From positions 33,040-97,039 of the forward strand of contig CALXXD010000004.1 of the NCBI GenBank assembly GCA_944392595.1: a stretch of 64,000 bases of DNA, written 5' to 3'. The notes beneath the pieces were generated by a model that had not been told where the DNA came from, made no database searches, and saw nothing but the letters and a program-made list of their open reading frames with translations. Shown piece after piece: positions 6,786-57,895 of the stretch. Both the position numbers and the translations under genes were made by a program. Source of the stretch: an uncultured Alphaproteobacteria bacterium. GTDB taxonomy: Bacteria > Pseudomonadota > Alphaproteobacteria > Rs-D84. Position 1 is the stretch's first letter, and every line of letters begins with the position of its first letter.

Positions 6786-7055
6786 TTAACGTTGATTGCG
6801 ATTGACACTGATTTGATTGCGCGTTTTTCTGTATAACTTAATAGCCGACGCCAAAGCCGCCCGCCCACGACGTTCTGCGTCAAACGCATCACGCGTTCTG
6901 AAAAACACTTTACGTGTTCCATGATACAGATACTCTATATCAACAACATACCCCAACAAGAACCGCTGTCCCCCTTCGATTAAAGGCTTTCTGAAACGCG
7001 GATACGGCACTTTAACAGAAACCGGCGTCCAATCAAATAATTTTAACCAATTCAT
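6786..7055 (-). CDS. Hypothetical protein (basic C-terminus ...RNQR)
   Basis: 89 aa ORF directly abutting the upstream gene, co-oriented in an operon. Confidence 0.65.
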   Translation of the reverse strand: MNWLKLFDWTPVSVKVPYPRFRKPLIEGGQRFLLGYVVDIEYLYHGTRKVFFRTRDAFDAERRGRAALASAIKLYRKTRNQISVNRNQR

Positions 7056-7601
7056 TTACTGTCCATTTTTATTCGGAACACCCCCAGGCTGCTGCTGACG
7101 CATTTTTTCCATCACAGCCTCCATCCCGCCCATACGTTGCACCATGGCCATTTGCTGGCGCATTTTTGCATGCTGTTTGATAATATGTTCGACATCACGC
7201 ACAGTACAACCAGCCGTTTCAGCAATCCGCGTCTTTGCATTTGCAAAAATCTTATCAGGTTCCGCACGTTCAGCGGGTGTCATCGCTTCCAATATTTTTA
7301 TTTGTGCATCAACACTGCCGTCTTTGATTTTTTCTTTCATCGCAGCCACAGCACCCGACATCCCAGGCACCATTTTTAACAATCCGCTGAAATTGCTCAT
7401 CTTTTTAATTTGTTTCAATTGCATCAGCATATCATTCAAATCGAATTGCCCGTTCATCATACGCTGGGCAGATTCTTTCATACCACTGGGCATTTTTTCT
7501 TCCAGTTTTTTTAATTCTTTTTCATCGATTTGTGCATTCGCATTATCAGCGGCAACCGTATCAACAACTTTTTTATCTTTTTTCTTGCCAAATCCAAACA
7601 T
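7056..7601 (-). CDS. Stand-alone SRP54/Ffh M-domain (signal-peptide-binding) protein with no NG GTPase
   Basis: GQFDLNDMLMQLKQIKKM..LLKMVPGM...AMTPAERAEP...RIA...G..V.DV..IIKQ...Met-rich tail aligns with the Ffh M domain; it has its own SD (AAGGAG) and ATG. Confidence 0.85.
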   Translation of the reverse strand: MFGFGKKKDKKVVDTVAADNANAQIDEKELKKLEEKMPSGMKESAQRMMNGQFDLNDMLMQLKQIKKMSNFSGLLKMVPGMSGAVAAMKEKIKDGSVDAQIKILEAMTPAERAEPDKIFANAKTRIAETAGCTVRDVEHIIKQHAKMRQQMAMVQRMGGMEAVMEKMRQQQPGGVPNKNGQ

Positions 7602-7633
7602 AATATTTCTCCTTGGGTTTTATAAGATATACT

Positions 7634-13507: not shown

Positions 13508-13584
13508 TGGCGCGCCCTGCAGGATTCGAACCTGCGACCTGCGGATTAGAAATCCGATGCTCTATCCAGCTGGGCTAAGGGCGC
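13508..13584 (-). tRNA. tRNA-Arg(TCT)
   Basis: Reverse complement GCGCCCTTAGCCCAGCTGGATAGAGCATCGGATTTCTAATCCGCAGGTCGCAGGTTCGAATCCTGCAGGGCGCGCCA folds as a cloverleaf with anticodon TCT and an encoded CCA. Confidence 0.97.
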
Positions 13585-13657
13585 GTTGCGCATATCTTAC
13601 AACATATTCCAGGAAATTTCAAGCCAACATAAAAAATCGCCCAAACGGGCGATTTTT

Positions 13658-14296
13658 TTAATCATTTACCAATCTTTTCAATTTTAATATTTCAATGTAC
13701 ATATACACATCCGCCGCGGCATACAGTAATAATGTTATGGCCAAATAATACACCATAACAACTGCGCCCGCCATAGGATAGAACAGTAAAAATACCGCCA
13801 GCGCAATCAGTATAATTGACATAATCAAATCAAACCAATAATTGCCAAACCGCGCGCGTATCATGTTTATCGAGAATATCAGCGACAAAATCGCACGCAA
13901 CGCAAACAAGATTACAAATATATAAACCAACGCCGCGACCGATCCAACCGGATATATACAGAACAATACACCCAACACAACCGTCAGCAATCCGAACACC
14001 ACATCGAACCATCCGCCACCCATGTCACGCGAAACAACGAAACCTGCGATTGTGCGATACAATCCGAACAACACCAAAGCCACACCAATCACCAACGTCA
14101 GCGCAGTTAAAATCGCAACCGGTTTAATCACCATCAGTATTGCCGCCACGCCAAACAACAACGCTTCGCATATCAGCAAAGGCGCACTTTTGTTATACAA
14201 ACGTTTAACCGACGACGCGATTGGATTATAATTCGCCGCGCGCGACGTGCGACGTGATTTTACAGATTTTGTTTTTTCAGACTTTGATTTTGGCAT
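13658..14296 (-). CDS. HdeD/DUF308 family membrane protein
   Basis: Six TM segments in a repeated DUF308-like pattern; SD AAGGGAG before ATG 14296. Confidence 0.75.
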   Translation of the reverse strand: MPKSKSEKTKSVKSRRTSRAANYNPIASSVKRLYNKSAPLLICEALLFGVAAILMVIKPVAILTALTLVIGVALVLFGLYRTIAGFVVSRDMGGGWFDVVFGLLTVVLGVLFCIYPVGSVAALVYIFVILFALRAILSLIFSINMIRARFGNYWFDLIMSIILIALAVFLLFYPMAGAVVMVYYLAITLLLYAAADVYMYIEILKLKRLVND

Positions 14297-14375
14297 TATA
14301 AAACTCCCTTCCTTGGACACAAAGAATTATAATACCATTCGCCAAAAAATTCAACCATACATTTATGGGAAACTT

Positions 14376-15176
14376 TTACCGCGACTTTTGATTATCACGC
14401 GCAACAGCCTTCAAAATTCTTTCCATCGTATCAGATGGCAGACTGGATGTAATCGCAATCGTGTATTTATCTTTGCCGGTTTTCAAGTCTTTTCCAGGCA
14501 TCAGACGCTTATATTCTTCTGCTGAAATATCGGTTACATACGGAACAATTTTTCGCCCCAATGTCCATAAATACGAATCCAGTTCTTTATATTCCACAAC
14601 TCTGCAAAATCTGTTTATATATTTGCAGTATTCCATATAGTTATAATTTTTGCGTGTTTTTGATACAAGATTCGTGCCTTTATTTCTGTACCAAAAATCC
14701 AACAGCCCGGCAACCAAACTGTCATAAATTGGGAATTTATCATCATGAAACCGATACCGCGATATAATGGAAAAATATTTAGACGTAAATGAAAACGCCA
14801 CACTGCGCAACACGGGCACCCCATGCTCATCATGTTTTTCGCGTGCATCAACTTGGTCTTTTATCACGCTTTGAACAACATTTTTGTCACCACTGTCCAT
14901 CGCGCCCAAAATATCGCCATGGCGGTTATACAAAATTTTCGACAAAGCATAACAATCGTCCCCACCCATACGAGTACTGTAAAACGAGTTAATCAACGTG
15001 ACCATGTGATAAACGTCTTCAAATTTTGAATTTTTGTTAATTAAAGAATTCGCGACATCACCCAACACCCGTTCATCACAGGCATACCGCCCACTCAACG
15101 GATTTTCTTTATTAAAGCGCCGAATGGTATCAGCGTTAATGATTAAATTTTCTTTTTTATCGTCCCAGTATTTCAT
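14376..15176 (-). CDS. Hypothetical protein, probable HhH DNA-glycosylase-like fold
   Basis: LINSFYST...SFTSKY...FPIYDSLV...KELDSYLW pattern matches a widespread uncharacterised family (SFAxKY..YPIYDSxV). Confidence 0.55.
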   Translation of the reverse strand: MKYWDDKKENLIINADTIRRFNKENPLSGRYACDERVLGDVANSLINKNSKFEDVYHMVTLINSFYSTRMGGDDCYALSKILYNRHGDILGAMDSGDKNVVQSVIKDQVDAREKHDEHGVPVLRSVAFSFTSKYFSIISRYRFHDDKFPIYDSLVAGLLDFWYRNKGTNLVSKTRKNYNYMEYCKYINRFCRVVEYKELDSYLWTLGRKIVPYVTDISAEEYKRLMPGKDLKTGKDKYTIAITSSLPSDTMERILKAVARDNQKSR

Positions 15177-15270
15177 AACACCACCATATTTTTATACTAA
15201 AAACAGTCTAGACAAAATAACAAAATTGTCAAGTATTATAACACCCCGCCCCACAAAAATCCGAAATCGA

Positions 15271-16476
15271 CTATAAATTTTTTATCTTAAATACTTTGTT
15301 CAGTGGTATAAGAATAAACACCACCAATACTAAAAATATTATTGTTGTTGCCGCCACACCAAAATTACTTAACAACGGCTTTGCCGCCATCAACACCACA
15401 CCAGATATTCCCATATTAAACATTGAACTTACACTTAATACTGTGCCGCGCTCGTTTGATTGAATTCTGTGATGTATATAATCATTAAAGACCAACACAC
15501 ACATCGTCTGAACGGCGGGGATAATCGCAACCATTCCGCATATTGCATACACCAGCGGCATCATAAACCCATTTGAATTTATCATCAAAAGCACCGCAGA
15601 AAACCCCAGCACCAACGCCCCAACACAACCCAACAATAACCTTTTGGCACCCAAAGCATTCAGAATTTTATGTGCAAATTTGGAAAACAATACCCTGCTT
15701 CCTTGATTGACGGCAAAGAACACCCCAAACAATGCAACAGGTACCAAAGCCAACTCCATCGCCGGCTGCAACAACCATAATAATACTATCGTAAATGTTG
15801 AATATATCGCAGGAAACAACATCAACCACTTTATTTCTGGATGTTTCACAGACATCTTTACTATACCAAGACAATCTTTCAGTGGGCTTGCCTCTGGTAC
15901 AACTTTACGCCTGACTTCTTTGATTTCCGGCAAAAACAGCATCAACAAAAATCCAAAGAATACTACAAACGCCTCTACACCCAACAATACATTCTCGCCC
16001 CGTGCCAACAATACCCCGCCTATGACCATGGAAATAAACGCCCCCACTTGCGCAAATGACTTTATTGAACCATTTTCTTTCACATATTGATTTTCCTTAC
16101 CGTCTCGCTTTAACAGGTCATACACATAGGCTTCACCCGTACCAGAAAGTAGTGCGTCGGCCATTCCCATAAGTGACTCACAAACCACAACAGCCCAAAA
16201 TCCCTGGGCCCATATCAATAAAAGCATTCCCAAAAATTGTAAAAGCGCGGCCAAAACCATAATTTTCTTTCTAGAAAAAACGTCGGCCAAATAACCACTG
16301 GGTATTTCAAACAAAAACGCCGCTATTCTGAAAATTCCCTGAATTAAAAAGAAATCCGCCAACGAAACACCCTTGCCCAAATACACCAACGTGATGACAG
16401 GAATTAACGGCATAAAATAGAGGCAAAATCTAGATAATTTTAATATCAGCAACGCGCCAGCATTAGACATTTTCAT
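15271..16476 (-). CDS. MFS transporter (efflux-like)
   Basis: About 12 TM segments; FEIPSGYLADVFSRKK motif A; SGT.EA.VYD. Confidence 0.92.
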   Translation of the reverse strand: MKMSNAGALLILKLSRFCLYFMPLIPVITLVYLGKGVSLADFFLIQGIFRIAAFLFEIPSGYLADVFSRKKIMVLAALLQFLGMLLLIWAQGFWAVVVCESLMGMADALLSGTGEAYVYDLLKRDGKENQYVKENGSIKSFAQVGAFISMVIGGVLLARGENVLLGVEAFVVFFGFLLMLFLPEIKEVRRKVVPEASPLKDCLGIVKMSVKHPEIKWLMLFPAIYSTFTIVLLWLLQPAMELALVPVALFGVFFAVNQGSRVLFSKFAHKILNALGAKRLLLGCVGALVLGFSAVLLMINSNGFMMPLVYAICGMVAIIPAVQTMCVLVFNDYIHHRIQSNERGTVLSVSSMFNMGISGVVLMAAKPLLSNFGVAATTIIFLVLVVFILIPLNKVFKIKNL

Positions 16477-16516
16477 CTCGTTATTTTATTTAATACAACC
16501 TTGTCAAAGAATATTT

Positions 16517-17092
16517 TTACACAATACTTGACCTGTTTTTTTCCAATTTTATTGCATTATCTTCATTAACAATTGCAAAAACCGCTGTATCACAGAAATG
16601 ATTTACCGATTTCATAAATACATCTTTCTTCATTATGCCCTCACAAACAAAACCCACTTTTTCTGCCAACTTCATACTTGGAATATTTTCTGTTGCACAT
16701 TCTATTTTTATACGAACGAACCCAGCTCTAATAAGTTCTGTTACCAAAAGTTTGACCGCTTCTGTCATATAACCATGTTCGGCATATTCTGGATTTATCT
16801 CGTACCCTAACTGGCACGCCATTCGCCATGTACTGACATCCCAACAATTTACAGTACCGATGATTCTGTCACCAAGAAAAATAGTATAATAAAAATCTTT
16901 GCGGTTTTTATCACTGTTTAATTCGGTAAAATAATCAAAAATTTCTTTTTCACTTTTCCAACAACTATTCTGCCATTTCATAAAGAAATCTTGATTATCT
17001 TTGACATATTGCCACACAGCACTGGCATGCGACGATAAAGAACGGCGCAATTGCACCCGTTCACCCTTTATATAATCTGGTAAGATATTCAT
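16517..17092 (-). CDS. GNAT acetyltransferase, RimJ/RimL family
   Basis: LGYEINPEYAEHGYMTEAV and ENIPSMKLAEKVGFVCEG motifs. Confidence 0.9.
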   Translation of the reverse strand: MNILPDYIKGERVQLRRSLSSHASAVWQYVKDNQDFFMKWQNSCWKSEKEIFDYFTELNSDKNRKDFYYTIFLGDRIIGTVNCWDVSTWRMACQLGYEINPEYAEHGYMTEAVKLLVTELIRAGFVRIKIECATENIPSMKLAEKVGFVCEGIMKKDVFMKSVNHFCDTAVFAIVNEDNAIKLEKNRSSIV

Positions 17093-17116
17093 TTAGCAGC
17101 ACTCTTTGCCAAAAGA

Positions 17117-17178
17117 ATAACAAAAAAACATGTTAAAATCTATTTATTTTCACCACACAAAATCGACTAAAACACATA
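17117..17178. repeat. 62 bp perfect direct repeat, copy 1 (carries a candidate - strand promoter TAGATT-17-TATTCT)
   Basis: Identical to 27242-27303. Confidence 0.95.
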
Positions 17179-17450
17179 ACACCACACAATAAGGAACAGG
17201 GAAAAACAGGGATTTTTTGCAAAAAACGGACATTTTGATCAAAACTCACACAACCTGCACTAGAATCTACCCGTGGCTTTCTAAGCGCTTACGCCCTACC
17301 TGCCCCAAATTTCCCTACAAAAATAACAGGGGATTTTTTATAACATATCAGGGAACTCCCAGCGAATAACAGGGAAAACTTAAAATTTATATTACAACAC
17401 CAAAATATTATGCTAGGATTACACTTAAATAAGAATCAAGGTACATAAAA

Positions 17451-18080
17451 ATGAAACTGCTTTTTATGCGCCACGGCGAAAGTAAATCACAAGCCAAATT
17501 GGTGCAAAACTCTGATCCAGACATTTTAAATAATTTGACGAGTGACGGTGCACAACAAGTAAAAGATGCATCAAAAATTTTCAACGGGAAACTAAATGCT
17601 GTATATTCTTCCCCATACATCCGCACCAAGGAAACTGCACAAATCTTTCTTGATACAATCAAACAAACATTATCTATCATTACAGACGAAAGATTACGCG
17701 AAATAGATTACGGCTTTCATGGCGGTGACACAAAAAAACACCCAGAAATGATAGAAGTTGCTACTAAACAAATTGCCGGGGATTATGAAATCAGATTTGG
17801 GCGCACAGGTGAAAACAAAAGGGAAATAGTCACACGTTTCTTCAATTTTATGATAGATATATTTAACAAGCATGATACAGACGATACAATACTTGCAATA
17901 ACTCACGGCCGCGCAATTTCAATAATTGAATACGAGTTCTGTAAAATCAATAATATTACATGCGAGCTTAGCGGAACAAAGAACGCACAAATTAAAGAAA
18001 TTATACTAACCGACGACAGAATAAACAAAGCCGAACAACACTTACAATCTATAAACAAAGTAAAAAACACAATTATATAG
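17451..18080 (+). CDS. Histidine phosphatase (phosphoglycerate mutase family)
   Basis: RHGES, SSPYIRTKETA, LREIDYG and THG motifs. Confidence 0.92.
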   Translation: MKLLFMRHGESKSQAKLVQNSDPDILNNLTSDGAQQVKDASKIFNGKLNAVYSSPYIRTKETAQIFLDTIKQTLSIITDERLREIDYGFHGGDTKKHPEMIEVATKQIAGDYEIRFGRTGENKREIVTRFFNFMIDIFNKHDTDDTILAITHGRAISIIEYEFCKINNITCELSGTKNAQIKEIILTDDRINKAEQHLQSINKVKNTII

Positions 18081-18197
18081 CCGTATAAAAAACTATAATA
18101 CGTTGTACCACCATTTTATTTGCGCTGTTTTTTACACGCGCACCAACCATGACACAACGAATTTATTGAATTTTTTGTTACAAGTGATACAATAAAA

Positions 18198-18746
18198 ATG
18201 ATGAATAAAAACTTACATAAAACTCTTTATCATGGTTCTGGCATAAAAATAACTGATGGGGTTATCCATGCGAAACCGGCACATATAAACCATATGCAAA
18301 CAGAAGTTACTGCTGTATTTGCAACTTCTGATTTCATACATGCTAAAAGTTACGCGATTATGCGATTGGTTGGTAATGGTTGGCTAACGCCGTATGAAAG
18401 AAATGGTGTATACGTCCAGGAATTAAATCCAAATATTCCCCCCAAGGCGTATGTTTATGAACTGGATTCCATCGGTTTTAAACAGGATACAGATGGTAAT
18501 TATTATTGTTTAACAGACAAACGGATAAACAAGGTTATCGAGATTGATGTTATGCAGGAAATCACAAACGGCAATATCAAAATATATGTTTTGAAAGATA
18601 AATTTAATACACCAAATATATCCGGGGTCGAATGGCACGAATTTGTTAAAGACAAAAACAACTTTGAATTGTATAAACCGGATTCCAACGGGGTTAATTT
18701 ATCCGTTTTGACCAAAATGTTGAAAAGTAAGTCGAATATCGTATAA
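18198..18746 (+). CDS. Hypothetical protein with a probable ADP-ribosyltransferase-like fold
   Basis: LYHGS...AVFATSD..HAKSYA...YVYEL pattern of H-Y-type ARTs (Arr-like). Confidence 0.5.
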   Translation: MMNKNLHKTLYHGSGIKITDGVIHAKPAHINHMQTEVTAVFATSDFIHAKSYAIMRLVGNGWLTPYERNGVYVQELNPNIPPKAYVYELDSIGFKQDTDGNYYCLTDKRINKVIEIDVMQEITNGNIKIYVLKDKFNTPNISGVEWHEFVKDKNNFELYKPDSNGVNLSVLTKMLKSKSNIV

Positions 18747-18771
18747 GTAATGAATTTTTTGGGTAATATTA

Positions 18772-19572
18772 ATGAAATATGTACCAGATTTAACTTTGTT
18801 GGATTCTTGGTCAGATGTAAAATCGCATTTGCGTTCGCCGGCGTTGGCGGTGTTTGAATTTGATAATAAAAAATTAATTTATTGCGGAACGAAACACGGC
18901 GCAGACAAGTCCTTTAAATTAATAGATAAATGTTTTTCTGATTTTGATATTGATTGTGTGGTCACGGAATACAGTCGTAAAGCAACATTAATGCCAAATG
19001 CCGGTAAAATCACAACTAAAAATGAACTGGAATATGCGGCACTGCTTGGTATGCGCGCAGGTCTAGATGTTGTCTTTGCCGATACTGCTAAAACAGATTG
19101 GATTTCTGATTTGGTTGCATTGTCGCCGGATTATGCACATAAAATGCAGACATTTTTTATGTTGAACGATGCGCATCTTTACAAAAAAACATTTAATGAA
19201 AATTTTTCTATTAATCGCGCGATTAAAAATGTTATTCATAAGTTCTGGAATGACGATTTTCCAAAGCCGATGAATGAATCAGAATTCAAAAAATACTTTT
19301 TACAGAATTTTGACATTAAAATCACAGACGATAATATCAGTGATATGTTGGCCGAACATCCAAAGTGGAACGAACCAAACAAACAAGGCAACCTGATAAA
19401 TAAATTGCATGCCGATATAAATTTATATTCGCGCGATCCATATATGATAAAATGCATTTTTAATGCGGTGAATTCTCATAATTGCGTGCTGGCAACATTT
19501 GGCGCGGGACATTTTGACGATGCACGCCGCGTTTTGGAACATTCATTTGGCACACCAAAGATAATAGGCTAA
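18772..19572 (+). CDS. Hypothetical protein (possible TraB/Tiki-like hydrolase fold)
   Basis: 266 aa ORF; GTKH near the N-terminus, VVTE, and RD..M...FGAGH near the C-terminus. Confidence 0.55.
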   Translation: MKYVPDLTLLDSWSDVKSHLRSPALAVFEFDNKKLIYCGTKHGADKSFKLIDKCFSDFDIDCVVTEYSRKATLMPNAGKITTKNELEYAALLGMRAGLDVVFADTAKTDWISDLVALSPDYAHKMQTFFMLNDAHLYKKTFNENFSINRAIKNVIHKFWNDDFPKPMNESEFKKYFLQNFDIKITDDNISDMLAEHPKWNEPNKQGNLINKLHADINLYSRDPYMIKCIFNAVNSHNCVLATFGAGHFDDARRVLEHSFGTPKIIG

Positions 19573-19614
19573 CCCACATACGCCGTACGATAATTTGAAA
19601 ATCGATTATAATTT

Positions 19615-19668
19615 TTATAAATTTTTTATCTCAAATACTTTTTTCAATGGTATAAGAATAAGCACTAC
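19615..19668 (-). pseudogene. 3' remnant of a paralog of the island MFS gene
   Basis: Encodes VVLILIPLKKVFEIKNL* versus VVFILIPLNKVFKIKNL* at 15271-15324. Confidence 0.8.
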
Positions 19669-19777
19669 CCACGGCACATACAACAACAAACAGAAAATTT
19701 GATAAAACAACAGCGAAACCATTTTTACATTGTTTTTTGGGCGATATGTGATACTTTTCGAAAAAAGGAGCCCCAAC

Positions 19778-20125
19778 ATGCCGCAACAGACCAACCCCTC
19801 TGACTATCTGAACAAAATTGTATCTGTTGTTATGGACAGGCCATTGGGCACAAAGCACCCCAAACATGGCTTTGTGTACGAAGTAAATTACGGCTATATT
19901 CCAAACACAGTTTCTGGTGACGGCGAAGAGCTTGACGCATATGTTTTAGGCATAGACAAACCACTAAAAGAATTCACAGGACGTTGTGTAGCAATTATTC
20001 ACCGTACAAACGATAACGATGATAAACTGATAGTTGTTCCGGACGGCTTAAAGATAACAAACCAATTCATAGAACAAAAAACTAAATTCCAAGAACAATG
20101 GTTCAAACATGAGATTATTAGATAG
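19778..20125 (+). CDS. Small inorganic pyrophosphatase (family I-like)
   Basis: DRPLGTKHP..YEVNYGYIP...DGEELDAY...DDKL motifs; AAGGAG SD before ATG 19778. Confidence 0.88.
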   Translation: MPQQTNPSDYLNKIVSVVMDRPLGTKHPKHGFVYEVNYGYIPNTVSGDGEELDAYVLGIDKPLKEFTGRCVAIIHRTNDNDDKLIVVPDGLKITNQFIEQKTKFQEQWFKHEIIR

Positions 20126-20158
20126 TCTTACATAAAAATTAAAATTACGAAACCTATC

Positions 20159-20455
20159 TTACCGCGCTTTATATTTATCACAAAGTGTCGCTATTTTACG
20201 TGCTGCACGCATCATCTCGCTGTGGAATCGTTTTAACTCATACGTAGAAACGCAATTTTCTTCTTTTTCAGATATTTTCCACGTACCATCTTTACATAAA
20301 AACTCTTTTATTTGTTCACCACCTATGGTTGGGCAAGCCACCCTTTTTTCATCTTCATCATAATAGACATCAAAACCGAACTTACAATGTTCTTCACACC
20401 CCGTACAAAAATCGCAAACATCCGTATTTATTTTCTTTTCCTGCGTGAATCCCAT
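20159..20455 (-). CDS. Hypothetical Cys-motif protein
   Basis: CDFCTGCEEHC motif; AAAGG SD; ends KYKAR. Confidence 0.65.
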   Translation of the reverse strand: MGFTQEKKINTDVCDFCTGCEEHCKFGFDVYYDEDEKRVACPTIGGEQIKEFLCKDGTWKISEKEENCVSTYELKRFHSEMMRAARKIATLCDKYKAR

Positions 20456-20653
20456 ATTTTTACCTTTTTTTTCAAAAAAATATTACAAATACGTACATTT
20501 GTCAACTCAAAAACGCCCTACATCTCAAATTGACTGTCATAAAATGTCATATCTGAAATTTGGGCGGATTTGGCAATTGTAAAATCACATACCGTGCATT
20601 TTTGAATATAAAACCCCGCATTTTCGGCGCAAGCAGCATATTTTAATCGGGGC

Positions 20654-20806
20654 GAATCCGAGTATATGAGAACAAGCGTCAGCGCCGTTCGAATAACTAC
20701 GAGGATACCCACAGGCATAAGCCGAGGGAATCCGAGTATATAAGAACAAGCCCTGCGCAGTTCGCATAAATACGAGGATACACGCAGGTCGCAACGCGAC
20801 CGAGTG
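20654..20806. repeat. Structured palindromic repeat family A, 2 units
   Basis: GAATCCGAGTA...TACGAGGATAC units at 20654-20708 and 20728-20781, near-identical to 32297-32382. Confidence 0.9.
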
Positions 20807-21471
20807 AAAGATTCTCCCCCCCCCCCCAACAAACCGCCGTTTGTCATTTGAATCCGCACGCGTCGCCAAAAAAATTAAAACCGCCGCATTTGCGACGGTT
20901 TGAATTTTCTGGTCGGGATTGTTTTATCAACGGTATTCTGCATCCATTACAAATCCCTGATACACACGAAATTTCAGGGAATCCATCTCAAAAACCGCCA
21001 TTTTCCGCCATAAAAACACACCCTTGCCTAAAATTAACAGGGAATAATTTGATAAAAACAAGGAACGACCCAACAACATCAAGGAAACACAACGAAAAAA
21101 TCTTGCAAAATCAATGCACTTTGCTAGATCATCATCAACAAAGCACCATATTATTTATAATAGCAACACTTATCGCACCATTATTTTTTAACCACACAAA
21201 ACCAAATTTTACTCCAAAAAAAGCAATATTTTTACACAATTTTACAAAAATAGAGCATCGCTTTTTAGCGACGCTGTTTTATTAAAATCTAAGCGCTTTC
21301 AGCATACTATATGTAAAATTCTTATACATAGTTCTGGCGCACTTTTCACATCGAACTACCGATTGATTGCTGCAACAAGCACTTACATAAGATTGCAAAA
21401 CAAAAACATTGTTGAAAATGCGCGTTTTAGTGCTAGTATATCAGTATATAATCCAACAAAAAATAAAAAAC

Positions 21472-22629
21472 ATGCTGTTACGTAATAATTTATTTAATTT
21501 TGATAGACCACAAAATTTTGATACAATGCCTGTATCAAAGCTCATGAAGGGGCTTGTTTTCGATTTTGATGACATGTATATTCCATTTTTTACACCGATT
21601 GGTACCTCTATGCTAAATAATGTAGAAAACGTTTTTAGAACCAATTTAGAACAAGTCAATTCATATGAAATACAAATACCATTGATTATGAGCAACGCTT
21701 CTTTGCAAACAGGACAAGAAGTAGGTTCTCTGTTCGAAAGAAAAATTATGCGGCTATCTGGCAAAATGTCTGAATACCATCTTATGACGTCTCCGGAAAT
21801 GGTGTTTATTAATCTTTTTGCCAAAAATGGCATCGATTCGAATTCCATGCCTATAAAATATCATTATATATCTAATATTTTTCGTGATATGCCGGATCCT
21901 AAGCACATATTACGAACAAAACAAATACGCATAATTGGCGGGGTGGCTTTTGATAAAAACGCACAAACACGCCAATTAACCGAAAATCAACTGACAGAAG
22001 CATTACGCAAATCTTTGGTAGATTTTAAAATCCCTTTCCATACAGAACGTTTCGCTAATGGTGCATCAAGTGAATTTTTTTATCTAAACTCCAAGGAAAA
22101 TGAAACTTATATGATTCCAAGTCTTGATCCAAACAATAGAACAAAATCTATCAGTCTTGGTATGATTTACGATTATAGTGCAGAATGTCCAAACGATTTT
22201 TTACACATAGACCCTCTTACAAAGCTTGCTTCTAAAACATTTGTTACCTCATATGCTTTTGGACTTCAGAGAGTATTGTATGTTATTATGGATCATTATA
22301 GAGACAACAAAGGCTTTAATTTACCTGCTAATATTCGCCCCTACGACGTTGTTTTTATTTCAAGCAAAGAAAATATGGAACTTGTCAAAAAAATGACATC
22401 TGACTTATCCAATGCGGGCATAACGACATGCATTGACAATATATTTGGTCGGGCACATACAAAGCGTATGGACAATGCGGACTATATCGGTGCCGGCATA
22501 AAAACCGTTATACGAAATAATACTTTATCTGCTTTTGACAGATCAGGAAATTTGCACATCAAAACATCCGACCCCCAAGAAGTCATAAATACAATTATTG
22601 GAATGATAAAACAACAGAGAATAAAATGA
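21472..22629 (+). CDS. Divergent prolyl-tRNA synthetase-like paralog (class II catalytic core + anticodon-binding domain, no editing domain)
   Basis: Motif 1 (PIG..ML..VE..FR..L....YEIQIP), motif 2 (FRD...ILRTKQI), motif 3 (SYAFGLQR..GFNLPANIRPYDV) and the anticodon-binding domain ADYIG. Confidence 0.8.
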   Translation: MLLRNNLFNFDRPQNFDTMPVSKLMKGLVFDFDDMYIPFFTPIGTSMLNNVENVFRTNLEQVNSYEIQIPLIMSNASLQTGQEVGSLFERKIMRLSGKMSEYHLMTSPEMVFINLFAKNGIDSNSMPIKYHYISNIFRDMPDPKHILRTKQIRIIGGVAFDKNAQTRQLTENQLTEALRKSLVDFKIPFHTERFANGASSEFFYLNSKENETYMIPSLDPNNRTKSISLGMIYDYSAECPNDFLHIDPLTKLASKTFVTSYAFGLQRVLYVIMDHYRDNKGFNLPANIRPYDVVFISSKENMELVKKMTSDLSNAGITTCIDNIFGRAHTKRMDNADYIGAGIKTVIRNNTLSAFDRSGNLHIKTSDPQEVINTIIGMIKQQRIK

Positions 22630-23870
22630 ATATCCCCGAAAGACTTTCAAAATATATAGTCAGCATAGAACCATATAAAGCGGCATGGCATGATATGGAA
22701 CTTGGCTTTGTAGATATACGTAAATTATTAAATCTATCTGATGATCAGCTTGAAGTTATTGAAAAACACGGGCTATTTAAAGACAACAAAAAAAGAACTT
22801 GCAGATATATAACAAACAGATCCACACCGCTTACCGTGGACGAGGTTATTGCATTGGTAACAGGCAATTTTATAGAACACAAGAATAAACGCCACAACAG
22901 AAATACAAATTATGAGATTAATTGGAAAGTTGTCTATGAACGCAGACTGTTAGAGGATTTTTCGGTACCTGCACTACCTGTCGTACCTCTTGACAAAGTG
23001 CAGCACCTGCCCCCATATCACAAACATTTTCCAATTCACTTGATTCAACGTTTATCAGAAATGCCAAGCGTACAGTATAACAATATCTTTGAGAGAAAAC
23101 TTATTTGGAATCCATATTTAAACACCGAAAGATTTGGACATGACTGGGTAAAAAACAAAGAATTTGTTCATAATCCAAAAAAAATAAACGTTCATAAAAG
23201 TTGCTTTGGTTACAACAAAGAAACGAAACGTACAGAACGCTTCATGGACTCTGCTTTGGGATACGATTTTTGGAATCAGGTTTTTTGGTTAGCGCGCTTA
23301 TCTCCTGAAAAATGGCGTAAAATAGAACGATATAACTTATTAATGTTTTCTGCTTATGATATGTCTTGTTATATGAATCTAGATGACAAAACACTAGAAA
23401 AACTTGTGCGCAAGGCCATGTTCAGACACGTTCACTATGCTTTTTCTCGAAACGTTTGGAACGTTACTTTAAGACTGGATATTCTGGACGATTTAGCCAT
23501 CAGAAAATATGGGAAACTGTTTGAAGATATACAGCACTATAAAAAAGCACAAGAGTTAAAACAACAAGCCATGCACATATCGTTAGGATGGGGCAATAAT
23601 TCTGAAGAGCATGTAAAAAATGAATTGGCGCCAACCATGATACCCAAATCCACATGTATAGAAATCCTGTCAAAATATGGTATTAATTGGACGGAAACCA
23701 TATCTGAACTATCATTAAAAAAACAATATTGGAAAGTTAGCGCAAAACTTCACCCAGATAAAGCAAAGCCATCAAATGCAACAGAACAAGAAGCAAAATT
23801 CAAAGAGCTGACCTTGGCTGTTAACACACTAAGAAAATACATGTCTATGAACAACACTAAAAGAAGATAA
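22626..23870 (+). CDS. Hypothetical protein with a C-terminal J (DnaJ) domain
   Basis: LKKQYWKVSAKLHPDK...EAKFKELTLAVNTL; ATGA overlap with the ProRS-like gene. Confidence 0.75.
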   Translation: MNIPERLSKYIVSIEPYKAAWHDMELGFVDIRKLLNLSDDQLEVIEKHGLFKDNKKRTCRYITNRSTPLTVDEVIALVTGNFIEHKNKRHNRNTNYEINWKVVYERRLLEDFSVPALPVVPLDKVQHLPPYHKHFPIHLIQRLSEMPSVQYNNIFERKLIWNPYLNTERFGHDWVKNKEFVHNPKKINVHKSCFGYNKETKRTERFMDSALGYDFWNQVFWLARLSPEKWRKIERYNLLMFSAYDMSCYMNLDDKTLEKLVRKAMFRHVHYAFSRNVWNVTLRLDILDDLAIRKYGKLFEDIQHYKKAQELKQQAMHISLGWGNNSEEHVKNELAPTMIPKSTCIEILSKYGINWTETISELSLKKQYWKVSAKLHPDKAKPSNATEQEAKFKELTLAVNTLRKYMSMNNTKRR

Positions 23871-23884
23871 AAGCCCCACTCATT

Positions 23885-24454
23885 TCAAACAACTGTTTCT
23901 ATGTACAAATCCTGATGTGTCGTTCTTTCTGGATGCCACATTATACATTTTATAAGTCCATCATTTGACGACACAGCTTCAATCACCCCCTCATATACCG
24001 CATCTATTTTTAGCCCCTCGCCCAATTTATCAACCGCATAACCATGATATGAATTTACTATCAATCCCAAATTATTTATCTTTATGAAATGATTAACCCT
24101 GACATGACCATCAACCTTTTTGAGCGTGCCACCAAAATACTCGTTTACCACTTGCATTCCCCGACATATCGCCAAGACCGGTATTTTATTTTTGATAGCA
24201 TAATCCAACAAGGACTTTTCAAAAACATCTCTTAAATGATTACTATCACTACTTTCTACTGAATTCAAACTATTTCCACCCGACAGAATTAACAGTCCAA
24301 AGTCAAACTCCTGGGGTCGTTGCTTATATGATATTGGCATTATTCTAATACCATATCTAGCAGCAAAATCATACCAGGCAGAATCTAATGATTCTCTAAT
24401 TTCGTTACGTTGTTCATCCTTGGTTATAATTTGAGTTATTATAGCTGTTTTCAT
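23885..24454 (-). CDS. Class I glutamine amidotransferase / peptidase C26, resembling gamma-glutamyl-CDP-amidate hydrolase (Cj1417-type)
   Basis: ITQ...E.RESL...W, LILSGGN, RD.FE, AICRGMQ, NSYH and MWHPER motifs. Confidence 0.82.
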   Translation of the reverse strand: MKTAIITQIITKDEQRNEIRESLDSAWYDFAARYGIRIMPISYKQRPQEFDFGLLILSGGNSLNSVESSDSNHLRDVFEKSLLDYAIKNKIPVLAICRGMQVVNEYFGGTLKKVDGHVRVNHFIKINNLGLIVNSYHGYAVDKLGEGLKIDAVYEGVIEAVSSNDGLIKCIMWHPERTTHQDLYIETVV

Positions 24455-24491
24455 GTTATTACCCTTAACGTCTTGTTTAATGCGTCTATTT

Positions 24492-25217: not shown

Positions 25218-25218
25218 A

Positions 25219-26271: not shown

Positions 26272-26477
26272 TACAACCCCCTTACATAGGATTTAATTTT
26301 GATAAAACCTTTTTATCAATGCACTCACTTTACAATAAAAAAGCAGATCACTTCAAGAAAAAACGGACTTATTCAAATAAAGTACTTATCGCCTACACAC
26401 ACAAATTTCATTTCCAATCTTGAAATAATCACTCAAAATCCGCCAAATATAAATCAAATGGCCGCAATATAAAGTAG

Positions 26478-27248: not shown

Positions 27249-27303
27249 AAAAACATGTTAAAATCTATTTATTTTCACCACACAAAATCGACTAAAACAC
27301 ATA
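27242..27303. repeat. 62 bp perfect direct repeat, copy 2
   Basis: Identical to 17117-17178. Confidence 0.95.
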
Positions 27304-27334
27304 CGGCGCGCAATAAAAAACAGGATTTTTATTC

Positions 27335-28392: not shown

Positions 28393-28416
28393 AAAGCCGT
28401 GGATAACCACGGCTTT
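28393..28416 (-). terminator. Terminator downstream of tRNA-Pro
   Basis: aaagccgtgg-ataa-ccacggcttt hairpin. Confidence 0.75.
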
Positions 28417-46261: not shown

Positions 46262-46819
46262 CTATCTTATCGGTCGGCGCAATGAACCAGACGTTCTGCG
46301 AACACTGGATTCACGACTGCCCGACGTAGTTTCGGCGGCAACCGCGCAAATCCATTGCCCACCCTGCAAAATAGCGGTTTGACCATCGGGGCATTCTGGT
46401 TCTTCTATGTTCCAAGAAAAACAACTGCCGCGTTGATACGAACGATACGTTGCATTATCGTCACCGCCATACGTGTATGCGCCATATTCAGGATTCCAAT
46501 ATCCAGTCGGCTGGCCACTGCACCATTTGCGATCGCCAAAACATTCAACGCAATTACCATTCGCGTCACACAATTCCATCGGATAAGCCGTTGATACATA
46601 ACCATTATTCGCACGATCGCCCTTGCCCATGGCTTTACCCGTTTCCAAATCGCGACACCACAGTTTTTGACATTCTGCGGCGGTTATGCCGTCTATATCT
46701 TTGTGCTCGACCAGAATATAGCCCGGCCCACACGACGTAAATTTATCCGCCCGCGCCCCAGGCACAGCCACAATCACAGTGCAAACCATAACAAACAAAG
46801 AAAATAAAATATTTTTCAT
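46262..46819 (-). CDS. Secreted Cys-rich hypothetical protein
   Basis: Signal peptide ending ARA; multiple Cys. Confidence 0.75.
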   Translation of the reverse strand: MKNILFSLFVMVCTVIVAVPGARADKFTSCGPGYILVEHKDIDGITAAECQKLWCRDLETGKAMGKGDRANNGYVSTAYPMELCDANGNCVECFGDRKWCSGQPTGYWNPEYGAYTYGGDDNATYRSYQRGSCFSWNIEEPECPDGQTAILQGGQWICAVAAETTSGSRESSVRRTSGSLRRPIR

Positions 46820-50903: not shown

Positions 50904-51046
50904 TTTTTATTCCTGTTCCCTTTTATAAAAATTCGTACAGGCCATATCATACCCCCATTTTATCCCCAAGGCAAGACTTATAAAACACATTGACAAACCG
51001 TTATTTTTGTACCATAATCACAAAAAATATAACCAGGAGTTTTAAT

Positions 51047-51763
51047 ATGCAACAACCTGAATCCAAAAGACCACAAAGACGTGCATTGCCTGAAATATTG
51101 AACCGCAGCGGCCAGAAAAACTACATTTCTGGTAACAAAGTTTTTATTTTGGGTCAGATTGATAACACATCATGCAACGAACTGATTGGTAATTTAAGCA
51201 ATCTGGTGGATTCACTTGATTGGGTTCCATTATATGAATTGAATCTGGCGAAACTGCAAAGTCCATACTTATTCTTCCCCGACCCAAGTGATTGCCCTGT
51301 GATTGACATATATTTGGATTCGCCGGGTGGTTCTATGTCAACAACCAAAAGCATAATGACATTATTGAACTTGGCGCGAAACAAAGGCGCAATTATCCGC
51401 ACAATGGTTATGGGTACGGCCGCATCCTGCGCCAGCATAATCGCAGTCCAGGGCACACCCGGATTTCGTACGATGTATGAACAATCGTATAATTTGATTC
51501 ATTATGGTTACTCGGTATATGACGTGGACAAGCCCACAGAAATAGACAAAGCAGCAAAGTATGAAAAAGAAATGCGTAAAAATTTCTTTGCACCGTATTT
51601 GCAATATACACAATTGACCCAAAACGAATTGGATGAATTGCAAAAAACAGAATACAGCATGTTATCTGCGCGCGAATGTTTGCGCCACGGAATGTGCGAT
51701 TGGATTTTGATGCCTGATGGTAAATTCGTAAAACGCAGAATCACAAAACAAAAAACACGATAA
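51047..51763 (+). CDS. Divergent ClpP-family (S14) protease
   Basis: IYLDSPGG, GTAASCAS (Ser), LIH (His) and LSARECLRHGMCD; AGGAG SD before ATG 51047. Confidence 0.82.
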   Translation: MQQPESKRPQRRALPEILNRSGQKNYISGNKVFILGQIDNTSCNELIGNLSNLVDSLDWVPLYELNLAKLQSPYLFFPDPSDCPVIDIYLDSPGGSMSTTKSIMTLLNLARNKGAIIRTMVMGTAASCASIIAVQGTPGFRTMYEQSYNLIHYGYSVYDVDKPTEIDKAAKYEKEMRKNFFAPYLQYTQLTQNELDELQKTEYSMLSARECLRHGMCDWILMPDGKFVKRRITKQKTR

Positions 51764-53376: not shown

Positions 53377-53535
53377 TATGATTCCTTTCGTAACTGCATT
53401 AATATATCACCACCAACCATAGAACAAAATCCCCCGCCCCGCAAGCCCGTTTTTGAATATTTTACATACTGAAATTACACAAAAACTTGACAAAATTGTA
53501 TTTTGGGCTATATTTATAACAAAGCGGGGTATGCC

Positions 53536-54255
53536 ATGCGCAAAAGCGACATAAAAGAACAAATAGAATCAAACAAAGAAATCATCACCGAATTGTCTTC
53601 GGGCGCAAAGTCATGCACCCGGCTGAACAATATGGGTTGGATGCACAGTGAATTGATTCATGAAACTGAAACCTTGTTTCAATATCCGAACTATATGCCG
53701 CCCGAAGAAAAAGAATACCATCTGAATTACATACACATTGGCAATCTGGGACGCGCATGGAATTACATCACGCGTAACAAAAAAACGCCAATTGATAATT
53801 ATCAAATTCGCCAACTGCACCGTATTTTGTCAAAAAACACCGACATCAAAGGGGGCGAATACAGATTTTCAGACGCATTCATTGAACAATTACAATGTGA
53901 TGCGCCAACATATCATATAATGTTGCAACGGCTGGGCGACATTGAATATAACATCAACAATTCAAACATGCCTGTTTTAATACGTGCATTTAATACTCAT
54001 TTTGACATTGTTTATGCCCAACCATTCAATGATTTTAACAAACGTGTTGCACGCCTGACCATGAATTGGTTTTTAATGCAAAATAACTATACGCCAATAT
54101 TCTTTAACAAAAAATCAGACAACCGCGATTATATGGTTGCGCTGTACCATCGCGCACACGAAGATTATAAATCGTATTCGTATTACATGTACAAATGTAT
54201 GCTGCGCACACAAAAAGATATTATACAATTAATAAAAAAATCCAAGGGGATGTAA
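53536..54255 (+). CDS. Fic/Doc family protein with a non-canonical motif
   Basis: IRQLHRIL, GGEYR and QPFNDFNKRVAR (versus HPFxDGNGRxxR). Confidence 0.85.
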   Translation: MRKSDIKEQIESNKEIITELSSGAKSCTRLNNMGWMHSELIHETETLFQYPNYMPPEEKEYHLNYIHIGNLGRAWNYITRNKKTPIDNYQIRQLHRILSKNTDIKGGEYRFSDAFIEQLQCDAPTYHIMLQRLGDIEYNINNSNMPVLIRAFNTHFDIVYAQPFNDFNKRVARLTMNWFLMQNNYTPIFFNKKSDNRDYMVALYHRAHEDYKSYSYYMYKCMLRTQKDIIQLIKKSKGM

Positions 54256-54261
54256 TAATAT

Positions 54262-55188
54262 ATGACGTCAATCATCAAAAATCTTAAAAACCACGGCCGC
54301 GAAACGTATGCGGTTTATTATGGGGATGAATTCGTACTGAAACGCCCCCTGCCGACTTTTGATGAAGAAACAAAAAACAAATGGCTTGCAAAACAGCATC
54401 ACACAAAATCCATTATTGATGAAATTCGCGAAGTAAAAAATCCTTTATATAATATCCCGTCTATGAAATTCATCAATGACGAAGAATATCAGATTTTGGA
54501 AGAACGCGCCCCCGGCGTTCCATTGACATCTGATGTATATAACAGTCTTACCAAACGCCAACAATTTGAAATTATAAACAGCGTCGCCAGTTTCTTGGTT
54601 GATATGAACGAATTAAAACCCGTTGGTCCAACACAAAAATATCATATAAAATACGAGTTAAAATTCAATCGTCTGACTAATTTTATCGACAATAAAATGT
54701 CGTTGTGGTTCAATGCGGGCGAAGTAAAACAAATGGCGCGCATTCGGGATAAAATCGGTACATTTGAATACGAAACACGCACCGCTTGGTCGCACGCAGA
54801 CATCAATCCAGGCAACGTGTTATACGACCCGAACACCAGCAAAATTTCATTTATCGATTTTGCCGAAGCCGGGTATAAATACATATACCGTGATATTTTC
54901 GCACCATTGCAAATTGAACTGGATATTTACAAGCGCGTGTATGAGGTATATTGTAAATTACACGACAAAAATTTATACCCCATGCCCAGCCTTAAAAACG
55001 ACACTTTGCGCGAAATTATGAAATACCGCATTATGGTTGTTTGGTTGCGTCGATTTATCAAAGCATCCGATGATTTACGAATAAATCCATCCGGTAAAAA
55101 AAGCGCAGATAATAACACAGAAAAAATCGCCTTTATGCGCCAACAAATGCAGAACTTTATCGATTTGGAAAAACAAATCGCCCGATAA
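54262..55188 (+). CDS. APH/choline-kinase-like phosphotransferase
   Basis: GRE...VLKRP, HADINPGNVL and FIDF motifs. Confidence 0.85.
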   Translation: MTSIIKNLKNHGRETYAVYYGDEFVLKRPLPTFDEETKNKWLAKQHHTKSIIDEIREVKNPLYNIPSMKFINDEEYQILEERAPGVPLTSDVYNSLTKRQQFEIINSVASFLVDMNELKPVGPTQKYHIKYELKFNRLTNFIDNKMSLWFNAGEVKQMARIRDKIGTFEYETRTAWSHADINPGNVLYDPNTSKISFIDFAEAGYKYIYRDIFAPLQIELDIYKRVYEVYCKLHDKNLYPMPSLKNDTLREIMKYRIMVVWLRRFIKASDDLRINPSGKKSADNNTEKIAFMRQQMQNFIDLEKQIAR

Positions 55189-56283: not shown

Positions 56284-57497
56284 TTCCGTTTGATAACGCG
56301 CAAGAAAACCTTTTTCCCACGTTGAACCATAATTTCATCACGTGGCGCAATTTCAGATTGCCAATCTGCAACGCGTTCGCCATCGATTTGAATTCCGCCC
56401 TGCTGCACCATACGACGCGCCTCGGATTTAGAATCGAACATTTTTATCGCAACCAAAAAATCCAAGATTCCCATCGGCGCATCCATATCAATCTGGACAG
56501 ACGGAATATTTTCGGAATTTGTACCGCCCGCGAACAACGCGTCTGCCGCACTTTCCGCCGCCACAGCCGCATCACGCCCATGCGCAATTTCTGTTGCCGC
56601 GAATGCCAATATTCGTTTGGCAGAATTTAATTCTGCCCCCTGTAACTTTGCCAGACGCGCAATTTCGTCCAACGGAATTTCTGTAAAGATTTTCAAAAAT
56701 TTTTCCACCAAATCATCGGGCGTATTACGGAAATATTGATAATATTCGTATGGCGATGTTTTATCTTCATTCACCCAAACGGCATTTCCCGCAGATTTTC
56801 CAATCTTTTCACCCTTGGAATCTGTTATCAGCGATGTAGATAAAACAAATACCTCGCGTCCCAATTTTTTACGCACCAATTCGACGCCCATCACACTGTT
56901 TCCCCATTGGTCTGCGCCGCAAAATTGCAATGAACATCCATATTTTTTATACAAAGTTAAAAAATCCACTGCCTGGAAAGTCATATAATTAAATTCCAAA
57001 AACGTCATACCGTTTTCCAAACGTCTGCGCACACTTTCCATAGACAACATACGTGGCACGGTAAAATCGGCCCCAAATTCGCGCAAAAAATCCATGTGCC
57101 CGTAATTTTTCATCCAATCATAATTATCAACCATAATGGCATCAGTTTCGCCATCGCCGAACTTTATAAATTTAGATATGGACTTTCGCAACCCATCGCT
57201 GTTTTTCTTAATCAGTTCATCAGTCATCATGGGACGGCCCTTATCACGCCCAGATGGATCGCCAATACGTCCGGTTGCACCACCGACCAATAAAATAGGT
57301 TTATGTCCATATTTTTGGAACCAACGTATCAGCATTAACGACGCCAGATGCCCAACGTGCAACGAATCACCGGTCGGGTCAGTCCCCCAATATCCGACAA
57401 CGCGCCCAGCATTTAACGCGTCATCCAAACCATCCAAGTTAGACGATTGGTTAATAAAACCACGTGCATCAAGTTCTTGTAATAATTCACTTTTCAT
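56280..57497 (-). CDS. tyrS: Tyrosine--tRNA ligase
   Basis: DPTGDSLHVGH, GADQWGN, KIGKS and a C-terminal S4 domain. Confidence 0.98.
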   Translation of the reverse strand: MKSELLQELDARGFINQSSNLDGLDDALNAGRVVGYWGTDPTGDSLHVGHLASLMLIRWFQKYGHKPILLVGGATGRIGDPSGRDKGRPMMTDELIKKNSDGLRKSISKFIKFGDGETDAIMVDNYDWMKNYGHMDFLREFGADFTVPRMLSMESVRRRLENGMTFLEFNYMTFQAVDFLTLYKKYGCSLQFCGADQWGNSVMGVELVRKKLGREVFVLSTSLITDSKGEKIGKSAGNAVWVNEDKTSPYEYYQYFRNTPDDLVEKFLKIFTEIPLDEIARLAKLQGAELNSAKRILAFAATEIAHGRDAAVAAESAADALFAGGTNSENIPSVQIDMDAPMGILDFLVAIKMFDSKSEARRMVQQGGIQIDGERVADWQSEIAPRDEIMVQRGKKVFLRVIKRN

Positions 57498-57508
57498 TTT
57501 GTTATTCC

Positions 57509-57895
57509 TTAACGTATTTTGGATATTCGGTCATGTAAAAACAACCGTAAATTTTCAGAAACCCTGAATGACGGCGTAATTCCGCGCGCAGACAACGCAC
57601 GCACCAAAATGTATTGGAAATACATTTTATCCCGACCATCCATATAATTTGCAACAAAATTTTGCACAGCATAATCACTAAGCGGTTTCACACTTAATAT
57701 TACACGATTACGATAAGACCACGCGACATACATATTTGGAATTTTACCAAACGCGCGCACTTTGTCCCCGATTTTCATACCATCTGCAAAATAGTCCGGC
57801 GCGAATAAACTGGTCTCAGATTTATCCGACGCACGCATCCACACGCGCGCGCCATCAGCATTTTGCTTTATATTATAAATTTTATATTTTTTCAT
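57509..57895 (-). CDS. Hypothetical protein (ends ...ISKIR)
   Basis: GAGG SD before ATG 57895; 128 aa. Confidence 0.6.
   Translation of the reverse strand: MKKYKIYNIKQNADGARVWMRASDKSETSLFAPDYFADGMKIGDKVRAFGKIPNMYVAWSYRNRVILSVKPLSDYAVQNFVANYMDGRDKMYFQYILVRALSARGITPSFRVSENLRLFLHDRISKIR

Follow-up and report, generated by a model that had tools for sequence, protein, structure and literature searches.

The stretch of DNA analysed here (hereafter the window) is 64,000 nucleotides long and spans positions 33040–97039 of contig C4 of G000, an alphaproteobacterial genome of the order Rs-D84 (977 kb, 15 contigs, rated 98.7% complete). Our subject is a short basic tail, most often with arginine (Arg) as its very last residue, which terminates several accessory proteins of the window, and its possible role as a signal for a type IV secretion system (T4SS). 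Genes were predicted with a simple codon-score caller, in place of a validated annotation, giving 851 genes and a coding fraction of 87% for G000. Pfam matches identify as housekeeping genes of the window tkt, rnhA, ftsJ/rlmE, uvrA, rodZ, dus, rho, ssb, eno, lptB/C, carD, PFOR, ctpA, an M23 peptidase gene, tyrS, tsf and rpsB, while other products carry a C-terminal J domain, a ClpP fold, a Fic domain, an APH-type kinase fold or a class-II aminoacyl-tRNA synthetase (aaRS) core. No Pfam family was found for the open reading frames (ORFs) 6786–7055, 14376–15176, 20159–20455 and 57509–57961. Close relatives of one window protein bear the label Candidatus Enterousia or that of uncultured Alphaproteobacteria.

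An earlier note on this DNA had quoted nine C-terminal tails, and translation reproduces them exactly: VNRNQR, RDNQKSR, DKYKAR, NNTKRR, TKQKTR, EKQIAR and RISKIR, which end in Arg, and KQQRIK and KKSKGM, which are basic without a terminal Arg (Table 1). It described their bearers as accessory proteins devoid of signal peptides, a description for which our own basis is a crude hydropathy scan, as for all signal-peptide and transmembrane (TM) predictions given below. As for the Arg-ended exceptions it listed, the island pyrophosphatase is indeed one of them, but just one signal-peptide-like Arg-ended protein was found instead of two (46262–46819), and its orthologue in the congeneric genome G003 ends with RRRTF. 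It also correctly stated that no named housekeeping gene of the window encodes an Arg-ended protein: none of the 17 does, versus 10 of the 39 non-housekeeping genes (Fisher p=0.023). Altogether, 10 of the 56 called genes of the window code for an Arg-ended protein, more than the 75/851 of the whole genome would predict (binomial p=0.023). These window-level statistics are weak, as they follow from an after-the-fact choice; note that outside the window terminal Arg is found in several G000 housekeeping proteins, namely S4, S9, SecY, ThyA, Tmk, Tdk, Dcd, PlsX, RsmG, MscL and ComM.

Table 1. Features of the window (coordinates in the window; aa, amino acids)
Feature	Positions	Strand	C-terminal end	Remarks
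Basic 89-aa ORF	6786..7055	-	VNRNQR	No Pfam family; no homologue in G003 or G040; charge of the last 25 residues +6
tRNA-Arg(TCT)	13508..13584	-		Left border of the island
Low-GC genomic island	13585..28425			Between two tRNA genes; gene GC 0.32-0.43; 5/17 called genes Arg-ended
266-aa protein	14376..15176	-	DNQKSR	No Pfam family; Atlas features nearest to HI_0787_N and OGG-like glycosylase clusters
131-aa pyrophosphatase-like protein	19730..20125	+	HEIIR	Island protein
98-aa orphan	20159..20455	-	DKYKAR	
406-aa class-II aaRS-like protein	21409..22629	+	KQQRIK	Island protein; Lys, not Arg
414-aa J-domain protein	22626..23870	+	NNTKRR	C-terminal J domain (residues 358-403)
tRNA-Pro(TGG)	28426..28502	-		Right border of the island
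185-aa protein	46262..46819	-	LRRPIR	N-terminal hydrophobic segment; signal-peptide exception
ClpP-like protease	50990..51763	+	TKQKTR	Likely true start 51047, giving 238 aa
250-aa Fic-domain protein	53503..54255	+	KKSKGM	Basic tail, not Arg
308-aa APH-type kinase	54262..55188	+	EKQIAR	Member of a conserved lineage family
128-aa orphan	57509..57895	-	RISKIR	Listed as a 150-aa ORF (57509-57961) from an upstream TTG

Excess of terminal arginine in accessory proteins

Arg endings as such are ordinary in G000: the last residue is lysine (Lys) in 205, glutamate in 104 and Arg in 75 of the 851 proteins, and Lys is the last residue of 24–30% of the called proteins in each of the three genomes studied. 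What is not ordinary is the difference between gene classes. We called accessory a G000 protein without a BLASTP match in the congener G003 (945 kb, GC 0.50), and shared a protein with such a match; accessory proteins of G003 are those lacking a homologue in G000, and accessory proteins of G040, which represents a different family within the order (GC 0.31, 620 kb of ~1002 kb sampled), those lacking a homologue in either of the other two. The Arg-ended fraction is 36/205 among accessory versus 39/646 among shared proteins in G000 (p=3e-6), 47/186 versus 30/639 in G003 (odds ratio (OR) 6.9, p=1.5e-14) and 28/256 versus 11/328 in G040 (p=3.5e-4), that is, 111/647 versus 80/1613 when the three genomes are pooled (OR 4.0, p=7e-19), the largest difference between the two classes for any terminal residue in the pooled set. 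The enrichment proposed for accessory and orphan proteins thus holds genome-wide in G000 and again in G003 and G040, confirming that the observation made in the window is real and extends well beyond it; chance and selection by the reader are ruled out at the genome level by these tests.

The same contrast is obtained when genes are sorted by other means. In G000, Arg is the last residue of 27/156 proteins encoded by genes with a GC content below 0.40, versus 32/558 for genes at or above 0.43 (OR 3.4, p=2e-5). Pfam families were assigned to a subset of 300 of the 851 G000 proteins, comprising all 190 proteins from genes below GC 0.41, the other 45 Arg-ended proteins and 65 random others. Among the former, 21/86 proteins without a family are Arg-ended, versus 9/104 with a family (p=0.0046); above GC 0.41, 23/45 Arg-ended proteins lack a family, versus 18/65 of the random proteins with another ending (p=0.016). 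The excess persists in long, high-scoring ORFs (at least 150 aa and a codon score of at least 20), with 21/139 accessory versus 31/525 shared Arg-ended proteins in G000 and 23/104 versus 24/519 in G003, which speaks against an artefact of gene calling. A single paralogous family is also ruled out as the source, since the 191 Arg-ended proteins of the three genomes fall into 171 BLASTP clusters, 154 of which are singletons. Finally, the same caller reveals no excess in a 250-kb sample of Escherichia coli K-12, a single species, picked to include four cryptic prophages (2/41 Arg-ended proteins in the lowest-GC fifth versus 9/102 in the upper half); a generic trait of low-GC or horizontally acquired genes was therefore not seen in this small sample. 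Genomic clustering of the genes coding for Arg-ended proteins is not clearly above chance, with 7 adjacent pairs versus 6.5 expected in G000, 12 versus 7.2 in G003 and 2 versus 2.6 in G040.

The excess is position-specific. In low-GC genes, Arg accounts for 17.3% of the residues at position −1 (the last one) versus 3.8–9.0% at positions −2 to −10. All the Arg codons, CGG included, are enriched as the last codon of these genes (e.g. CGT, 11 versus 2.8 expected; CGA, 6 versus 0.8; AGA, 7 versus 1.7), which places the accessory excess at the level of the amino acid. AT-richness and composition are ruled out by the confinement of the excess to position −1 and by the fact that the accessory sets are poor in Arg (2.9% Arg and 10.4% Lys in G040), yet terminal Arg rises in them and terminal Lys does not. 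Clean terminator hairpins lie downstream of many genes coding for Arg-ended proteins; neither a DNA motif common to their stops nor a terminator overlapping the stop, which might have caused the excess, was seen. More specifically, the residue at position −3 is Lys or Arg in 31/75 (G000) and 32/77 (G003) Arg-ended proteins, the residue at position −4 is glutamine in 15/75 and 9/77, and the C-terminal motif [QN][KR]xR occurs 9 times in G000 and 12 times in G003, versus 0.46 and 0.44 expected from its internal frequency. The net charge of positions −21 to −2 is +1.71 in accessory soluble Arg-ended proteins versus +0.67 in other accessory proteins (p=0.002), the protein bodies being near-neutral.

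Individual families and neighbouring elements

The best-conserved tail is that of the ClpP-like protease, for which we retrieved 35 homologues. Over 31 species-level loci (33–98% identity), the last residue is Arg in 22 cases, Lys in 7, His in 1 and Ile in 1, and the tails differ in length and sequence while keeping the same flavour (e.g. QKTR, EKQR, QHQR, GRGTR). All 31 loci at which the family with a QKTR-type tail was found belong to gut alphaproteobacterial or Enterousia-labelled metagenome-assembled genomes, which speaks against such tails being a feature of homologues in unrelated taxa. In the predicted structure, the confidence (pLDDT) drops from 93 for residues 241–250 to 43 for residues 251–257, which puts the last 5–7 residues outside the confident fold. 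To judge from these sequences, the retention of the tail across the 31 loci points to selection within this one family.

The effector set proposed in the earlier note (kinase, Fic, ClpP-like, glycosylase-like and J-domain proteins) turns out to be heterogeneous: the Fic-domain and aaRS-like proteins are not Arg-ended, and the kinase belongs to a family widely conserved in the lineage, in which Lys (83 of 120 homologues) prevails over Arg (33) as the last residue. The 266-aa glycosylase-like protein is present in 4/80 other genomes of the order, with QKSR kept in two near-identical copies. The J-domain protein, which none of the 45 other genomes of the genus carries, is strain-specific cargo of the tRNA-flanked island. 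A paralogue (64% identity) ending with ARYKRR is encoded by C15, a 9.1-kb contig with a GC content of 0.33, which also codes for a large serine recombinase and an alpha/beta hydrolase and probably corresponds to a mobile element related to the window island. As for the orphan 57509–57961, its last ~55 residues recur in metagenome proteins at 96% and 62% identity, joined to ScpB-like (176 aa) and HEPN-like (122 aa) N-termini; these sequences may represent either a C-terminal module common to the proteins or ORFs that became chimeric where insertions concentrate, between tsf and tyrS.

Several neighbouring features are worth recording. The 89-aa basic ORF lies immediately downstream of a 181-aa ORF (7056–7601, minus strand), which it abuts without a gap and which consists solely of an SRP54 M domain (Pfam SRP_SPB, residues 52–151); no NG domain lies upstream of the latter, the next gene there being uvrA. 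The window also contains a short copy (351 aa, 28582–29637) of a family represented by 11 loci in G000, mostly 730–1080 aa long, five of which end with C[ES]D[IT][QN][MF]. The 850 bp between eno and an OmpA-family gene (39318–40174) hold solely implausible overlapping ORFs and no Rfam family at gathering score. Just upstream of the window lies a Microviridae-type prophage (C4:~21.9–26.3 kb) encoding a Phage_F capsid protein (518 aa), a REP_ORF2-G2P replication protein (273 aa) and a pilot protein (193 aa). Finally, defence and mobile genes are remarkably dense among the low-GC genes of G000, given its size of 1 Mb: GmrSD, RloB/AAA_21, ResIII, several methylases, OLD, ApeA, KAP NTPase and NERD on the one hand, at least seven resolvase-type recombinases on the other, together with toxin–antitoxin domains.

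A dispersed VirB/VirD4-type secretion system

The earlier note called for a search for virB/virD4 genes, and such genes are present in G000: we found VirB3, VirB4, two VirB8, VirB9, VirB10, a VirB11-like ATPase and VirD4. They are dispersed, with housekeeping genes as neighbours. VirB4 is an 805-aa ORF matching PF03135 and preceded by VirB3, and VirD4 is a solitary gene of 740 aa with matches to PF02534, TraG-D_C and TrwB_AAD_bind. VirB8 (267 aa), VirB9 (511 aa) and VirB10 (871 aa, C4:751–3177) form one cluster; the second VirB8 occupies a separate locus, behind bamA and a small lipoprotein gene, and the VirB11 candidate is a 331-aa ATPase of the T2SSE family. An 808-aa paralogue of VirB10, without a match to the TrbI Pfam model, is encoded at C3:56313–58928, and both proteins share the C-terminal end GDCFPPI[ILK] with an 84-aa ORF (C1:174796–175050). 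The system is conserved in the order: of the 41 genomes sampled, all have VirD4 and 38 have VirB4 (30/30 of the high-quality ones), and the identity of both proteins tracks the kinship of the genomes. The relaxase families PF03432 and PF08751, the only two searched for, are absent from G000. With its chromosomal location, its apparent vertical inheritance and the lack of a relaxase of these two families, the system looks like an effector-type rather than a conjugative T4SS.

The substrates of alphaproteobacterial VirB/VirD4 systems carry C-terminal signals that are net-positive, rich in Arg and poorly conserved and that are read by VirD4, according to the available portions of PMC3297438, PMC12676571, PMC8525350 and PMC3814349. 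We applied the signal criteria given in the accessible part of PMC3814349, namely at least three H, R or K residues in a hydrophilic segment of the last ~25 residues with a net charge of at least +2. Seven of the nine window proteins conform to them, the exceptions being those at 14376 and 54262, as do 25/36 (G000) and 27/47 (G003) accessory Arg-ended proteins. A folded delivery domain of ~100 residues, of the kind represented by XVIPCD and BID, is not apparent in the Arg-ended proteins, which lack detectable mutual similarity.

Weighing the origin of the tails

Because the tails match the known description of alphaproteobacterial signals and the machine is present and conserved, we rank first the hypothesis that the Arg-ended tail is a secretion signal for the VirB/VirD4 T4SS, and we would give it a probability of about 0.4. 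According to this hypothesis, these Alphaproteobacteria with ~1-Mb genomes would bear, on part of their fast-evolving accessory proteome, a lineage-specific C-terminal tag consisting of a short, hydrophilic, net-positive tail with Arg as its final residue, often of the form Q-[K/R]-[T/Q/S]-R-COOH. Beyond the rate observed in core genes, roughly 25–40 proteins per genome, mostly small orphans, would carry the tag. Acting in the manner of the C-terminal translocation signal of Agrobacterium-type systems, which is positively charged and rich in Arg, it would be read by VirD4 and mark the proteins for export into a partner cell, whose existence the hypothesis supposes. The retention of the tail in the ClpP-like family speaks in favour of this proposal, and none of the three contrary outcomes named beforehand (no enrichment, no T4SS, the same tails in unrelated taxa) was observed; overall, the T4SS interpretation of the earlier note is partly supported. 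The broader proposition that the whole order consists of obligately partner-dependent gut alphaproteobacteria and uses terminal Arg (Q-K/R-x-R-COOH) as a minimal tag read by VirD4 is more tentative still.

Several observations weigh against a secretion signal. The link between the tails and VirD4, as well as translocation itself, are steps that we infer. In 612 orthologue pairs between G000 and G003, terminal Arg is kept in only 11/32 cases, to be compared with 107/164 for Lys and 38/42 for Phe; of the 14 Arg-ended proteins with an orthologue and no Pfam family, four keep Arg and four have Lys instead. Likewise, two divergent homologues of the 266-aa protein (51–55% identity) lack the tail. 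The signal criteria are unspecific, being also satisfied by 72/205 accessory and 149/646 shared proteins in G000 and by 164/639 shared proteins in G003, and a classifier based on the last 10 residues separates accessory from shared proteins weakly, with an area under the curve of 0.60–0.65 versus 0.53–0.60 for internal windows. Effector-like domains are nearly absent, 38 of the 44 accessory Arg-ended proteins examined in G003 having no Pfam family. The excess is strongest in ORFs shorter than 150 aa (13/57 and 22/70 of the accessory proteins of this size), where gene calls are least certain. The preference for soluble proteins that substrates devoid of Sec signal peptides would imply is present in G000 (31/149 soluble versus 5/56 TM or signal-peptide accessory proteins) and is not replicated in G003 (29/101 versus 18/85). 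Finally, VirB6 and VirB2 (PF04610, PF04956) gave no match at E<=0.001 in this 98.7% complete genome, with the proviso that divergent forms may escape these models.

The tail might be real and selected and yet play another role, such as nucleic-acid binding, protection from or targeting to a protease that reads C-termini, or another export route. We consider this somewhat unlikely. It would suit a tagged set made mostly of small orphans, of the size usual for regulators and antitoxin-like proteins, as well as the weak conservation between orthologues, which fits a loose physicochemical preference. Moreover, conservation is best in a ClpP-like protease, which would be an unusual protein to secrete and might use its tail to contact a partner ATPase, and G000 encodes three S41 C-terminal-processing-type peptidases and HlyD- and TolC-type components. 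Yet nucleic-acid binding should favour Lys in AT-rich genes, without a peak at the last residue, and the prophage-rich DNA of E. coli is full of small regulators and displays no such excess; type I secretion signals are not known to be Arg-terminal. A by-product of the origin of young, decaying or chimeric ORFs, or of the gene calls, with ends shaped by an unrecognised mutational or recombinational process, is improbable; it would imply that a large share of the small orphans are no functional proteins. The crude gene caller, the prominence of short ORFs, the chimeric appearance of the orphan 57509–57961 and the fast turnover of terminal Arg between congeners are all in keeping with such an origin, but random sequence of the same composition should have Arg before ~7–8% of its stops (an estimate from base frequencies), versus 17–31% here. 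It also accords poorly with the excess found among long, high-scoring ORFs, with the clean terminator hairpins and diverse Arg codons, with the retention of the ClpP-like tail over 31 species and with the lack of an excess when the same caller is applied to E. coli.

Less probable still is an import by phages or other mobile elements having their own terminal bias. The Arg-ended proteins located in low-GC islands, the tRNA-flanked island of the window and the related element with its serine recombinase on C15 are what this would predict. However, a mere 10 of 88 Arg-ended orphans match PHROG families (E<=1e-3), one of them, a microvirus pilot protein, being a clear virion protein; no Arg end occurs among the low-GC defence, restriction and recombinase genes according to our reading of the Pfam lists, the nine Arg-ended low-GC proteins with a Pfam family being of other kinds, and the prophage regions of E. 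coli show no excess. The last possibility is a side effect of termination context, in which last codons ending with A are preferred, with Lys, glutamate and Arg favoured before TAA. This bias is unusually strong in these genomes: in genes with a GC content of at least 0.43, the last codon ends with A in 308 cases versus 135 expected and with C in 24 versus 115 expected, AAA occurs 129 times versus 22.7 expected, and terminal Arg is mostly encoded by AGA (10) or CGA (11), CGC being absent versus 11.8 expected. It explains the terminal Arg of core genes. The bias, however, peaks precisely where Arg ends are fewest (5–6%), in core genes; terminal Lys falls in accessory proteins (34/205 versus 171/646 for shared proteins in G000) while terminal Arg rises, and CGT and CGG are enriched there too. 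For the accessory class, this explanation is largely refuted, and we deem it very improbable indeed.

Should the secretion-signal hypothesis be correct, a few dozen fast-evolving orphans per genome could be read from sequence as an injected effector repertoire, which would provide a first handle on the way these tiny-genome bacteria exploit partner cells. An obligate symbiont or parasite lifestyle has been proposed for the order in PMC12306168, in the available portion of which the words 'secretion' and 'effector(s)' occur 0 times, and we found no publication on type IV secretion in Rs-D84 or on VirD4 in Enterousia. The combination of a conserved T4SS with a countable C-terminal mark on the variable proteome would yield a testable list of candidates for this partner-dependent lifestyle. 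Besides, a last-residue preference by which accessory and core proteins differ, and which the E. coli sample lacks, provides an inexpensive statistic at the genome scale that could be applied to other T4SS-bearing lineages.

Among known systems, the closest parallel to the tail is the VirB/VirD4 signal of Agrobacterium, together with the Bartonella Beps and the tails of Brucella VceA and VceC: in both cases the host is an alphaproteobacterium with a VirB/VirD4-type system, and the signal sits at the extreme C-terminus of unrelated proteins and is hydrophilic, net-positive, enriched in Arg and poorly conserved (available parts of PMC3297438, PMC12676571 and PMC8525350). The tails described here differ by Arg as the very last residue, by glutamine at position −4 and by Lys or Arg at position −3; a limited literature search returned no description of a last-residue Arg preference as a feature of T4SS signals. 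XVIPCD of Xanthomonas and BID of Bartonella are likewise C-terminal elements common to otherwise unrelated T4SS substrates, but these are folded domains of ~100 residues detectable by sequence, whereas the present tag would comprise a few residues with no detectable similarity. The general bacterial bias in C-terminal Lys and Arg and in termination context shares with our data the over-representation of Lys, glutamate and Arg as last residues and the A-ending last codon; unlike the Arg excess, which is specific to accessory proteins and absent from the E. coli sample, it peaks in core genes, with Lys as the favoured residue. As regards the machine, its layout resembles that of the rvh T4SS of Rickettsiales, a likeness of arrangement. 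In both, the genes lie in scattered islets among housekeeping genes, some components are duplicated (here VirB8, present twice, and VirB10, which has a paralogue), the system is inherited vertically, the genome is reduced and no relaxase (here, of the two families searched for) has been found, as far as the accessible sections of PMC2653234 describe rvh. Conversely, VirD4 stands alone here instead of following VirB8–VirB11, and rvh has five VirB6 genes, according to the same sections of PMC2653234, whereas the Pfam models detected neither VirB6 nor VirB2 in G000.

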